Under the pieces are notes generated by a model that was not told where the DNA came from, did not search any database, and saw nothing but the letters and a program-made list of their open reading frames with translations. Positions 8,178 through 23,695 of a DNA stretch of 56,509 nt are shown here, piece by piece. This DNA is from Anaerolineae bacterium (GTDB taxonomy: Bacteria > Chloroflexota > Anaerolineae > B4-G1 > SLSP01), in assembly GCA_049975205.1 (NCBI GenBank), contig JBNGDL010000018.1, positions 1 through 56,509 on the forward strand, in the 5' to 3' direction. How positions within the stretch are numbered: the first letter of the stretch is position 1; every line of letters starts with the position of its first letter. Made by a program: the position numbers and the translations under genes.

Positions 8178-9212
8178 ATGAACAGAAAAAAGCGCCCAAC
8201 GCTTGCTGATGTCGCTGAACATGCTCAGGTTTCCACGGCCACTGTCTCCCGAGTGGTCCGTAACACGGGCTCTGTGAGTGAGAGCCTGCGCGAGCGCGTC
8301 GAGGCCTCGATTGCCGAGTTGGGGTACAAGCCCCGGAACTCATTTACCGGTTCTTCCGCGCAAGGCATTATCGCCCTCTTGATTGGCGACCTACTCAATC
8401 CCTTCTTTCTGGAAATCGCGCAGGGCGTGCAGGACGAGGTCAACAATGAGCGGATGATGATGGCGATCTATAACGTGGCCGATCAGGCCCATCATCAGTC
8501 TCAGCTCTTAACCGAACTGCATAAGGCGGGGGTTGCCGGCGTGATCTTGGCCGGACTGACGCCTATCCCCGAGCTACTGGATTGGCAGGAACGCTACAAG
8601 GTCCCCGTGGTGCTTCTCAACCGGCGTGTCTCGCAATCGGGCGTGCACTGCATTGTGGTGGACTTCGAGGAAGCCATGGTCCGCGCCACCCGGCACCTGC
8701 TGGCGTTGGGGCATAGGCGCATCGGGCACCTGGCGTCGCCCAGCACCGGAGAGATCGCCGAGGCCCGTCAGCGCGGCATCGAGGTTGCCTTGAAGGAGGC
8801 TGGGCTGGAGTTGCGACCCGAGTGGTGCCCCATCGTGCCGCCCGGCAGGGAGGTGGGCGGTGGCTTTCAGGCGATGCGCGTCTTGCTGGACCTGCCTGAG
8901 GAAGAGCGCCCGACCGCGGTCATCGCGTTCAACGACATCATCGCCGTCGGAGCCCTACACGCCGTACGCAATCACGGCCTGTCCGTGCCGCAGGACATCT
9001 CAATCATCGGCGTGGACGATATCGCGCTGGCGGGCCACACCTACCCACCGCTTACTACCATCAGTCAGCCTAAGTATCACATGGGGAAACTGGCAGTCCA
9101 AACATTGCGTCGCTTGGGCGAGGGTCGGGTCAGTATGAGCAACAACTGCACGTTGCTGGAGACCCCATTGATCGTCCGTGAATCTACGGGACCTTGTAGG
9201 GAGACCCGGTAG
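8178..9212 (+). CDS. LacI-family transcriptional regulator
   Basis: TLADVAEHAQVSTATVSRV HTH; C-terminal sugar-binding domain (PTAVIAFND, VPQDISIIGVDD, PPLTTI). Confidence 0.95.
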   Translation: MNRKKRPTLADVAEHAQVSTATVSRVVRNTGSVSESLRERVEASIAELGYKPRNSFTGSSAQGIIALLIGDLLNPFFLEIAQGVQDEVNNERMMMAIYNVADQAHHQSQLLTELHKAGVAGVILAGLTPIPELLDWQERYKVPVVLLNRRVSQSGVHCIVVDFEEAMVRATRHLLALGHRRIGHLASPSTGEIAEARQRGIEVALKEAGLELRPEWCPIVPPGREVGGGFQAMRVLLDLPEEERPTAVIAFNDIIAVGALHAVRNHGLSVPQDISIIGVDDIALAGHTYPPLTTISQPKYHMGKLAVQTLRRLGEGRVSMSNNCTLLETPLIVRESTGPCRETR

Positions 9213-9307
9213 TCGCCAGGTCTCCCTCTGCATCTGGAGGCAGAGCTCGGAGGCGATGGCTCCTTCAGGGTGCTGTGGGCCACCGTCACCGCCCTTTCGG
9301 ACCGATC

Positions 9308-9400
9308 TTATCGCGCCAACAGCGTGACAATCAACACGATGACTGCAATCCCCAGAGATGACCAGTCAATCAACTTCCACTTCGGCTCTTCCCGACCCAT
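9308..9400 (-). CDS. 30-aa single-TM peptide under predicted LexA control (absent from the ORF track)
   Basis: ATG...TAA gives MGREEPKWKLIDWSSLGIAVIVLIVTLLAR; AGGAGG RBS 5 nt upstream; dedicated promoter and two SOS boxes. Confidence 0.75.
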   Translation of the reverse strand: MGREEPKWKLIDWSSLGIAVIVLIVTLLAR

Positions 9401-9418
9401 CGCGCCCTCCTGGTGTCT

Positions 9419-9430
9419 GAACGTTTGTTC
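9419..9430. promoter_or_regulatory. LexA (SOS) box, Gram-positive/Chloroflexota type
   Basis: GAAC-GTTT-GTTC, just downstream of the predicted start site of the minus-strand promoter. Confidence 0.75.
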
Positions 9431-9441
9431 TATATGCCCCT

Positions 9442-9470
9442 ATTATACTAGAACTTGTGTTCTATTGCAA
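9442..9470 (-). promoter_or_regulatory. sigma70 promoter with a LexA box in its spacer
   Basis: Minus strand TTGCAA-17 nt-TATAAT; the spacer contains AGAAC-TTGT-GTTCT (9450-9463). Confidence 0.8.
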
Positions 9471-9649
9471 GAGCCAATTTGCCCCTCTGGTCACGAAACC
9501 CATGTGGCAGTGCGTCACAGCGTGCCCCTTTTTGACGCGCTTTGCACTTCGCGACAATCCGGGTACGCTGTGGAAGGAGCGAGGCGAGGCGACAGATCGT
9601 TCTCGCTCTGCCCACTTAACGCCAATCTCATCTGTATTAAGGAGGCAAG

Positions 9650-10039
9650 ATGCGCAAAGAGATCTTTACCGAGAAGGGTGCCGCCCCCGTGGGGCCCTAC
9701 TCCCAGGCGGTTGTGGCTGACGGACCATTTGTCTTCGTCTCAGGACAGGGTCCCGTCGACCCGGCGACGGGACAGATGAAGCTAGGCAGTATCGCGGAAC
9801 AGGCGGAACAGGTCTTCGAGAATATCACGACGTTGTTGGAGGCCGCGGGCACCTCGTGGGAGCACGTCGTGCGCGTCGGCATCTTCCTGGTCGACATGGA
9901 CGACTTCGCGGAGATGAACAGCATCTATCAGCGATACTTGACGAAGCCCTACCCGGCTCGGACGACGGTAAGCACCGGCTTGCCGGTCGATGGGATGCTT
10001 ATTGAGGTCGATTGCATTGCTGTGGTCCCCGAGGCGTAG
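9650..10039 (+). CDS. ridA: RidA/YjgF family enamine/imine deaminase
   Basis: GPYSQAV, VSGQGP, PARTTV (active-site Arg), IEVDCIA; RBS AAGGAGG. Confidence 0.9.
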   Translation: MRKEIFTEKGAAPVGPYSQAVVADGPFVFVSGQGPVDPATGQMKLGSIAEQAEQVFENITTLLEAAGTSWEHVVRVGIFLVDMDDFAEMNSIYQRYLTKPYPARTTVSTGLPVDGMLIEVDCIAVVPEA

Positions 10040-22372: not shown

Positions 22373-23695
22373 TTACGAGGCGCTGGAACGGTCCAGCGAC
22401 CGCCACAAGCAGAGCTTTCCCTGGTCATCGGCAGAGGCCAACCACCGCCCTCCCGGGCTGAAATCGACCGCGCGCACGTGGCCTCCATGCTCTGAGAGGC
22501 TGCCCCGGAGGGTCCGGCGGTGCAGGTCCCAGAGACGCACCTCGCCCTGCCAATCACCTGCTGCTAACGTCGCCCCAGCGGGTGAAATCGCGATGCTAGT
22601 GATGAGGTGAACGGCCTCTTCCTCGATGACGAGTTGCCCCACGGAATCGCCCCGGAGTGGATTCCACAGTCGGACCGTCTCATCCCATCCACCGGACGCC
22701 ACGAGGGCGCCTTTGGCGCCGAAGCGCACGCAGGTCACCTGCGCTGTGTGCCCGGAAAGCGTCCAGAGCTCCTGAGCCTGGGCGACGTCCCAGAGGCGCA
22801 CGTTCCGGTCCCAGCCTCCTGCTGAGGCCAGCGTACGACCGTCGTCACTGACGGCGAGACCCAGCACGGCCTCACGATGGCCCGCGAGCGTGGCCTCCAT
22901 CCGGCCCGACTTGGCATCCCACAGGCGCAGGGTCGCGTCCCGGCTGCTCGAGGCTAGCAGATCACTCCCTGGGACAAAAACCATCCCTGTGATCTCCCCG
23001 CGGTGACCGCGCAGGCGAGGGATCTCGGCGCCGGCATTGGTCCATGGCCAGAGATAGATGCCGGTGTCGCCACTGCCCAGCGCCAGGGCTAGGCCGTCGA
23101 GGCGCCACGCCACGCTCGTGAGGATGCCCGTCTGCTGTTTGAGCATCGTGGTCTGCTCGCAGCTAGCGACGTCCCAGATGCGGGCTGACGTGTCGATCCC
23201 GACCGACGCAAGCTGATGCCCATCGGGGCTGAAGGCGAGATCGGCGATCTCGCCCTCGTGGGCCGTCCAACACTGGGCCAGCTGGAACCCGAGGGCCGTG
23301 GTGCGCTGAGTCGACGCGAGGGTTTCGGGTAGCGACTTTCGCGCCGCAGCTGCGGTTACAGCTGCAATCTGCGATTCTGAGCCAAGGGCGAGGGCCTCCG
23401 CCCAGATGCTGACGGCCCATAGCGCGGCGTCCGCGGACAGAGCCGTCGTGTCGCGCAGCTCCGCCGCCAGCCGCGGCAGGACCACGGTTAACGGCAGTTG
23501 GGCAGCCATGGCGCGTAGATCGCTCACGATGCCGTGCTCCAGTGCGCTTACCAGGACGAAGATCTCGCGCTGGTAGTCGCCACAGAAGTCGCGGAGCAAG
23601 GCCTCACAGCGCCGGTGGTCGTCGCAGACCTCGGGACCATACTGCTGCACGATGCGTTTGAGGCTTTGGCGTGGGACGTCGCTCATCGCATTCAT
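22373..23695 (-). CDS. WD40-repeat beta-propeller protein with an N-terminal helical domain
   Basis: About seven GH...WD repeats (LRGHRG, LAGHRE, LSGHTA; RLWD); N-terminal CDDHRRCEALLRDFCG domain. Confidence 0.9.
   Translation of the reverse strand: MNAMSDVPRQSLKRIVQQYGPEVCDDHRRCEALLRDFCGDYQREIFVLVSALEHGIVSDLRAMAAQLPLTVVLPRLAAELRDTTALSADAALWAVSIWAEALALGSESQIAAVTAAAARKSLPETLASTQRTTALGFQLAQCWTAHEGEIADLAFSPDGHQLASVGIDTSARIWDVASCEQTTMLKQQTGILTSVAWRLDGLALALGSGDTGIYLWPWTNAGAEIPRLRGHRGEITGMVFVPGSDLLASSSRDATLRLWDAKSGRMEATLAGHREAVLGLAVSDDGRTLASAGGWDRNVRLWDVAQAQELWTLSGHTAQVTCVRFGAKGALVASGGWDETVRLWNPLRGDSVGQLVIEEEAVHLITSIAISPAGATLAAGDWQGEVRLWDLHRRTLRGSLSEHGGHVRAVDFSPGGRWLASADDQGKLCLWRSLDRSSAS

Follow-up and report, generated by a model that had tools for sequence, protein, structure and literature searches.

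The window analysed here is the whole 56.5-kb stretch (56,509 nucleotides (nt); contig C18) of an Anaerolineae genome, and it carries on its minus strand, between a LacI-family gene and ridA, a very short gene for a 30-amino-acid (aa) membrane peptide, MGREEPKWKLIDWSSLGIAVIVLIVTLLAR (coding sequence 9308–9400, ATG at 9400, stop codon TAA at 9308–9310). The assembly is 3.62 Mb in size in 101 contigs, with 60.7% GC and a completeness of 88.9%. We are highly confident that this is a real, translated gene for a membrane peptide under the control of LexA. The best explanation we can offer for its function, reached by analogy and held at roughly even chances, is that of a damage-induced membrane effector similar to SidA of Caulobacter crescentus, probably an inhibitor of cell division. 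The kind of gene is already known; what is new is the sequence family, the phylum, a conserved cytoplasmic motif and a link to phages.

The gene is preceded by a near-consensus promoter and two operator-type boxes. The −35 hexamer TTGCAA (9465–9470) and the −10 hexamer TATAAT (9442–9447), both placed on the minus strand by sequence reading and a sigma-70 scan, are separated by the 17-nt spacer TAGAACACAAGTTCTAG, and inside this spacer lies box 1, TAGAACACAAGTTCTA, a perfect TAGAAC-N4-GTTCTA 16-mer at 9449–9464 with its GAAC-N4-GTTC core at 9451–9462. This promoter is the only sigma-70-like match within 9050–9750, agreeing at 10/12 positions (shuffles average 0.2). Judging from the position of the −10 hexamer, transcription would start near 9435. 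Box 2 (9417–9432, minus strand) begins 9 nt past the −10 hexamer and covers this predicted start; its core GAACAAACGTTC at 9419–9430 is perfect and its flanks differ. A Shine-Dalgarno (SD) sequence, AGGAGG (9406–9411), is found 5 nt ahead of the ATG. These elements had been described in the initial annotation, and re-reading the minus strand returned its coordinates and sequences exactly for the TTGCAA-17-TATAAT promoter, both boxes, AGGAGG and the open reading frame (ORF).

Two perfect GAAC-N4-GTTC sites occur in the window, both at this locus, with 0.62 expected; by itself this count says little, since 12 of 100 shuffles also reach two. We judge the elements to be real because the promoter, boxes, ribosome-binding site and ORF recur in 15/15 distinct orthologous loci, which bears out the original proposal that the minus strand carries a self-contained small-membrane-peptide gene controlled by LexA-type operators, and answers the check it had suggested, that homologues be searched for upstream SOS boxes. 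Box 1 lies in the promoter spacer in all 15 loci, and its 16-mer is perfect in 13, the other two having 1–2 mismatches. The spacer is 17 nt long in 14 loci and 18 nt in L027, which is also the one locus where the −35 element is CTGGTA and not of the form TTGnnn (14/15), and the −10 hexamer is TATAAT in 13 orthologues and TATACT in two. Box 2 was found in 14/15 loci (it is absent in L011), beginning 5–12 nt past the −10 hexamer, with at most one mismatch in 10 loci and two mismatches in four, the window included; where both boxes are present their centres are 28–35 bp apart. Mean pairwise identity is 85% over the promoter and box 1, 58% over the 5′ untranslated region (UTR) and 65% over the coding sequence, and falls to 38% in the upstream flank and 37–42% in the downstream flank, compared with 37% in a shuffled control.

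The bare 12-mer GAAC-N4-GTTC is not enriched genome-wide (38 seen, ~45 expected). The perfect 16-mer TAGAAC-N4-GTTCTA occurs only twice in 3.62 Mb, once in the peptide promoter; base-composition arithmetic gives ~0.07 expected for the genome. The same motif is located in or beside the promoters of the genes expected of an SOS regulon: inside the 17-nt spacer of the TTGACA/TATAAT promoter of lexA (C95:3783, 2 mismatches; cognate LexA coding sequence C95:3895–4554), overlapping the recA promoter (C6:103706, 1 mismatch), in the radA promoter spacer (C29:6228), in the promoter of a radical-SAM repair-type gene (C47:16719; 397 aa), and upstream of both an imuB-like Y-family polymerase gene (C49:9875; 476 aa) and uvrB (C44:20864). 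The lexA and recA genes were identified with Pfam models, and the names radA, uvrB, imuB-like and radical-SAM, as well as the TPR-type name used below, come from reading N-terminal sequences without a family scan. The box-in-spacer layout of the peptide promoter is the same as that of lexA, recA and radA in its own genome. In the taxonomic family (71 genomes) 30 genomes have matches to the pattern GAAC-N4-GTTCTNNTATAAT, and its reversed control matches 0/71. Outside the genus there are 19 matches in nine other genera, and 14 of the 17 loci examined precede radA, two precede lexA and one has no evident ORF. On this regulon evidence, which comes from the present analysis and on which the assignment of the motif in Chloroflexota rests, we identify the SOS operator of this genome as the extended GAAC-N4-GTTC box, in agreement with the identity as a LexA box that had first been proposed for it. 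Directly behind the 39 SOS-type sites of the genome (at most 2 mismatches), no SD-led membrane ORF other than the peptide is convincing. Further putative SOS regulon boxes are found in or adjoining promoter spacers at C16:34831, ahead of a 308-aa protein, and at C10:10284, ahead of an 849-aa protein taken for TPR-type.

The distribution of the peptide and the way its sequence varies point to a protein-coding gene. A DNA search of 41 relatives matched 11/21 same-genus genomes; ten of these matches cover the promoter and run into or through the ORF, and the eleventh (G011) is an unrelated 28-nt part. With a hidden Markov model (HMM) profile of the peptide, 14/21 other genus genomes were positive (E 3e-11 to 4e-22), or 15/22 with the window genome, each with one credible copy, and nothing at a credible score was found over 123 genomes of other genera in the order. 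Weak HMM matches in the order (145 genomes; E 0.004–0.09) lie inside 101–871-aa frames and were rejected as unrelated transmembrane (TM) segments; one weak match in Acetobacteraceae (E 7e-4) spans 10 residues. The 15 distinct peptides come in three forms, of 29–30 aa with one TM segment, 52–53 aa with a second TM segment, and 55 aa with a basic N-terminal extension, and M1, E5, P6, W8, D12 and W13 are invariant in all of them. Pairwise synonymous difference (pS) is 0.61 and nonsynonymous difference (pN) 0.26 over 11 sequences and 29 codons, with variabilities of 0.33, 0.23 and 0.47 at codon positions 1, 2 and 3, so the ORF is under purifying selection. An SD-like GGAG, GAGG or AGGA precedes the start codon in 14/14 correctly parsed orthologues (L010 was mis-parsed and dropped).

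Protein searches found few relatives and no named family. Among 5.8 billion clustered proteins there are 23 relatives, unnamed or called "hypothetical protein", and exhaustive HMMER over 1.84 billion representatives gave 19. The exact 30-aa peptide is present in the protein collection, and its relatives are a "hypothetical protein" in some public annotations of metagenome-assembled genomes. Scans of NCBIfam and of Pfam, which includes a TisB model, with E up to 10 returned no relevant family and no toxin family; PHROGs matched 0/3 peptides, PADLOC matched 0/22 members, and the best ESM Atlas score (0.80) is at chance level. A listing-level literature search, with most subscription papers outside it, turned up no paper that describes an SOS division inhibitor or a small SOS peptide from Chloroflexota. 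The initial annotation knew of no described equivalent in this lineage, and neither these databases nor this literature supplied one.

The peptide gene is monocistronic, its unit being closed by the convergent LacI-family gene (8178–9212, plus strand) and a hairpin. This hairpin (9198–9227, minus strand; 12-bp stem and 6-nt loop) appears in both the minimum free energy (MFE) and centroid folds, 80 nt past the stop codon, and is a possible terminator common to the two convergent genes; it has no U-tract and the terminator scan did not call it. Several orthologues also have, by eye, a GC-rich hairpin past the stop codon, and the sequence there is not conserved. The 3′UTR of the peptide mRNA (9230–9290, minus strand) holds two CCUCC stretches, one of which pairs with the SD region in the MFE fold. 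Through this pairing the SD of the window has an unpaired probability of 0.14, compared with 0.30 in the control, and it may be a matter of chance in GC-rich sequence, since the 3′ flank is unconserved across orthologues.

In the window peptide the N-terminal motif E5-P6-x-W8-x3-D12-W13 is followed by an uncharged TM helix of 17 residues, and the last residue is Arg. Across the members the TM segment after the invariant D-W is 17–21 residues long, without charged or strongly polar residues, and has a mean hydropathy of 1.7–3.1 (Kyte-Doolittle 2.4 in the window peptide). The tail after it measures 0–5 residues in single-TM members and leaves 0–1 residues outside the membrane in the 30-aa form. 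For the 52-aa form, an AlphaFold2 model shows a short helix at 7–10 and a TM hairpin at 13–34 and 37–51, with a predicted local distance difference test (pLDDT) score of 76. According to the positive-inside rule, the basic flank of a TM segment is cytoplasmic. The N-terminal net charge is +1 to +6 in 18/28 members (range −1 to +6), and on this basis the N-terminus would be cytoplasmic and the motif would lie at the cytoplasmic face of the membrane. The juxtamembrane motif is conserved and the TM residues vary freely; this selection on the motif and not on the TM segment makes a specific protein partner likelier than general damage to the membrane.

These features suggest the following mechanism. 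In an undamaged cell, a LexA dimer on box 1, between the −35 and −10 elements, would block binding of RNA polymerase, and a second dimer would sit on box 2 across the transcript start. Two operators on a near-consensus promoter would, from the anatomy, fit a gene that is tightly repressed because its product does harm when expression leaks. Sustained damage would lead to RecA-stimulated LexA cleavage and free the promoter, and the ~35-nt leader with its strong ribosome site would be translated directly. The peptide would then be inserted with its N-terminus in the cytoplasm, placing E-P-x-W-x3-D-W at the cytoplasmic membrane face, where the motif would most likely bind a membrane-embedded partner and pause cell division, as the 29-aa SidA of Caulobacter does. 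Given a real, LexA-controlled gene, a division or checkpoint effector is in our estimate an evenly balanced proposition, drawn from the likeness to known inhibitors.

SidA is described as a 29-aa LexA-controlled inner-membrane protein that inhibits division via FtsW (PMC4211646), and the Anaerolineae peptide, at 30 aa, resembles this description in being single-pass in the inner membrane, monocistronic, under direct (here predicted) LexA control and without an RNA antitoxin. A 2026 study of YneA (PMC13396833) describes the blocking of late division by small integral membrane proteins as a widespread feature of SOS responses; in it, YneA contacts TM7 of FtsW through its own TM helix, and SidA, ChiZ and SosA are predicted to contact FtsW via theirs. 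YneA of B. subtilis, ChiZ of M. tuberculosis and SosA of S. aureus share the GAAC-N4-GTTC motif family (PMC3323433), and they are membrane-anchored and damage-induced, as is predicted for the peptide. Unlike the peptide, they carry an extracellular domain needed for activity (LysM in YneA and ChiZ, an extended helix in SosA); the 30-aa peptide has no extracellular LysM or Pfam domain and a single residue after its TM segment. SulA is unrelated to it in size and type, and the SulA domain PF03846 had no match in the genome at its 88.9% completeness. The likeness to SidA is one of description, Pfam and NCBIfam gave no relevant family, and there are differences: the LexA motif and phylum are others, the peptide gene has two operators, the conserved determinant is the cytoplasmic E-P-x-W-x3-D-W and not the TM helix, and the family includes two-TM variants and phage-borne relatives. 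A complex prediction of the peptide with the cognate FtsW (C24:37241–38455; FtsW alignment of 29 rows) gave "no answer", with a score of 0.00 in two runs made without controls, and counts neither for nor against a contact.

Several points weigh against the peptide being a SidA-like division inhibitor. It was not found in 7/22 genus genomes (84–93% complete), and as an accessory gene it cannot be the lineage's general checkpoint. The proposed topology rests mainly on relatives, since the N-terminal charge of the window peptide itself is 0. Because the conserved part is the cytoplasmic motif and the TM segment is variable, the mode of contact may differ from that of known inhibitors, and because divergent relatives are located in phage early regions, the ancestral role may be phage-centred. 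LexA binding, induction and phenotype are likewise all predictions from sequence. With that said, we rank a SidA-like checkpoint effector above a toxin and above a peptide with another, possibly phage-derived, target, because the safeguards of tisB were not seen, the anatomy of SidA fits and no SulA was found.

The relatives outside the genus clade bring phages into the picture. Divergent members of 29–107 aa keep E-P-x-W-x3-D-W-x-x-L followed by a TM helix. Six loci come from metagenomes; four belong to the genus clade and have the SOS promoter, and two are divergent, lack it and are translationally coupled within strings of tiny genes. One of these two (L091) is located between an Xis-like helix-turn-helix gene, so named by sequence reading as no family matched, and a phage replication initiator (phrog_2447, E 5e-27), and the other (L090) lies opposite a CI/XRE-type repressor. 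Two further copies are viral sequences from IMG/VR. In L092 an integrase and a repressor are transcribed divergently from an early operon whose last genes are those of the peptide and a second integrase-like protein, and in L093 the peptide is found between an XRE-type regulator and a Sak4-like ATPase. No perfect LexA box was found in ~8 kb around either viral copy. The divergent members with DNA context therefore number two from metagenomes and two viral, of which three are independent, as L090 and L092 are the same kind of element. Phage copies are presumably expressed on induction, and by sequence the family appears to consist of temperate-phage members and one chromosomal clade predicted to be wired to LexA. 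Within L092:611–5255, the two tyrosine-integrase-like genes (phrog_1, E 8e-45 and 6e-32) flank the repressor and early-operon region, and the peptide gene abuts the second.

A second, putatively SOS-controlled system of the genus is also of interest here. Neither SLT-domain (lytic-transglycosylase) gene of the window genome, by comparison, was found to have a credible box or a four-TM partner upstream of it. In peptide-free genus genomes, perfect boxes mostly precede a soluble FtsK/SpoIIIE ATPase of ~351 aa (PF01580, E 3.5e-36; no TM segment), plus a few unknowns. In the window genome a perfect LexA 16-mer lies just past a TTGACA-17-TATAAT promoter (G000:C66:18289–18363, L129), ahead of an FtsK-like gene cut by the contig end, and Rfam had no match on this locus; the same observation covers L137:405–1457 (minus strand) and L139–L142. 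A 132–159-aa protein with two TM segments (P0038 family, no Pfam) often follows the FtsK-like gene and has its own box in 2/21 loci. As a 142-aa form of it stands behind a box in G005, it was considered as a replacement for the peptide and rejected: it is present in 17/22 genus genomes, frequently together with the peptide, and the two are not complementary. By analogy, the pair looks like an SOS-controlled split FtsK-type translocase, for which the nearest described parallel is SmeA-SffA of Streptomyces (PMC9380542).

It is possible, if unlikely, that the peptide is a membrane modulator with a target outside the divisome, or a domesticated phage peptide for host takeover or exclusion. The peptide might then regulate a membrane protease or a transporter, tether the SOS-induced soluble FtsK-like ATPase to the membrane, as SmeA does for SffA in Streptomyces, or be a superinfection-blocking phage peptide captured by the SOS regulon. 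All four divergent members with context (three independent) are in phage lysogeny or early regions without a LexA box, the same regulon holds the soluble FtsK/SpoIIIE ATPase, and the invariant cytoplasmic motif suggests a specific protein partner; in Streptomyces, SmeA-SffA is described as a LexA target (PMC9380542). However, PADLOC and PHROGs matched no member tested, the FtsK-like gene occurs in peptide-free genus genomes and has its own two-TM partner, and the neighbours of the peptide gene in the window are ordinary metabolic genes, not prophage genes. The divergent members resemble temperate-phage host-takeover genes in lying between repressor or integrase and replication genes, whereas the chromosomal clade is prophage-free, is predicted to be directly LexA-wired and had no PHROG match. 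Because early genes of phages are often blockers of host division, the phage context cannot tell such a peptide from a division inhibitor. In one version, to which we give little credence, the host took over a peptide from a phage early region and placed it under LexA, or transfer ran the other way, and one Anaerolineae genus gained a DNA-damage effector; its active part would be the cytoplasmic juxtamembrane motif and not the TM helix, with a target or mode of contact unlike those of SidA, YneA, ChiZ and SosA, and phage copies would come on at the same damage-induced time via repressor cleavage.

The other alternative of some weight is an SOS toxin of the TisB or DinQ type, in which the peptide would oligomerise and dissipate the proton-motive force, leaving damaged cells dormant, with the two LexA operators as the sole safeguard. 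DinQ/AgrB is a type I toxin–antitoxin system of the E. coli SOS response. At ~30 aa the peptide is very hydrophobic (the mean of 2.4 over its TM segment given above), its LexA-type control through two operators suggests a product harmful if leaky, and its gene is accessory and patchily distributed. TisB is described as a small hydrophobic LexA-controlled depolarising peptide, and tisB as silenced by the antitoxin RNA IstR-1 together with a 5′ structure that is inhibitory until processed (PMC11575346). The peptide is likewise a small hydrophobic membrane peptide from a gene that is LexA-repressed (predicted here), but its locus has no antisense footprint, no long structured 5′UTR, no sign of a primary transcript that is translationally inert and no charged TM residues. 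Antisense promoter-like sites were found in 0/15 loci, in an interval that begins 40 nt ahead of the ATG and ends 200 nt beyond the stop codon, and none in 9050–9750 of the window, so the search for an antisense RNA that the initial annotation had proposed came back empty. The flanks are at the identity level of shuffled sequence, and Rfam had no match over 8800–10000. The predicted 5′UTR is 34–51 nt long, with an SD unpaired probability of 0.33 compared with 0.39 in shuffled-downstream controls (14 loci), and the mRNA fold is unremarkable (z = −0.7). Furthermore, charged or polar residues that could line a pore are absent from the TM helix, it is the cytoplasmic motif and not the helix that is under selection, and there is one credible copy per genome. 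The absent antisense promoter, unconserved flanks, short open leader and uncharged TM segment thus disfavour the TisB/DinQ-type option that had been raised for this gene, and we regard a toxin as a rather improbable explanation. If the peptide were a toxin without an RNA antitoxin, transcriptional double-locking alone could tame such a gene.

A LexA-controlled non-coding RNA with an untranslated ORF is very improbable. No RNA dataset was listed as containing the stretch, and a single metatranscriptome dataset (from the same study as the best-matching DNA dataset) had no reads on 9150–9700, which is uninformative. The ORF is very short and has no expression or proteomic support. Against this, the excess of pS over pN and of variability at third positions is that of a coding sequence, the frame and motif are kept in members of 29–107 aa, including phage copies in other nucleotide contexts, a strong SD is found at the correct distance in the 14 parsed loci, and there is neither an Rfam match nor a remarkable fold.

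The boxes could also belong to the divergent neighbour, as ridA (9650–10039, plus strand) is divergent from the unit here and, with a gene that we call D-threonine-aldolase-like from sequence reading without a family scan, in 6/11 loci. In the other 5/11 loci the neighbours differ and ridA is not adjacent, and the promoter, boxes and ORF persist. Four peptide-free genomes (G001, G004, G005 and G014) have ~700 nt of intact DNA upstream of ridA and no peptide; only G005 has two near-boxes there (1 mismatch in each), both rich in GC and at a distance of more than 500 nt from ridA, and in a fifth (G003) the ridA upstream region is cut by the contig end. With neighbours that vary, no credible SOS box upstream of ridA in peptide-free genomes (4/5), box 1 within the minus-strand promoter spacer at 187 nt from the ridA start, and an ORF under purifying selection, the scenario of boxes that control only the ridA operon beside an incidental ORF, which the initial annotation had named as its possible undoing, is so far-fetched that we take it to be excluded.

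Other SOS-type sites were observed without an assigned gene. At G000:C43:22430–23390 (L128:530–1490) there are two strong LexA-type sites separated by 660 nt, TAGAACATACGTTCTG at 22510 and a pair of overlapping boxes at 23173–23192; in this stretch of ~1 kb neither a long ORF nor a sigma-70-like promoter was seen, and Rfam had no match. A LexA box is also located within a minus-strand TTGACA-17-TATAAT promoter at G000:C27:16456 (L130), and the sequence downstream of it contains N bases. In another genus of the family (L058; G023:C109:5363–5383), the SOS-type promoter GAACAAATGTTCTGGTATAAT has no SD-led ORF within 150 nt; its product may be a small RNA, or the transcript of a leaderless or otherwise unusual gene.

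Anaerolineae are abundant, filamentous and mostly uncultured, and to our knowledge nothing is known experimentally of their SOS response and cell-cycle checkpoints. The chromosomal clade of the peptide family is, as far as the genome sequences go, accessory and confined to one uncultured genus, where 15/22 genomes have it. Its ~165-bp unit, with a near-consensus promoter and two operators, would be useful as a damage reporter or as a tightly repressed expression switch, and the encoded 30-residue effector, with its six invariant positions, lends itself to synthesis and to testing in heterologous hosts. If the peptide is a division inhibitor, it would extend the SOS checkpoints that act through small membrane proteins by a sixth unrelated sequence family and into a new phylum, and its phage relatives would link host checkpoints to the genes that phages use for host takeover.

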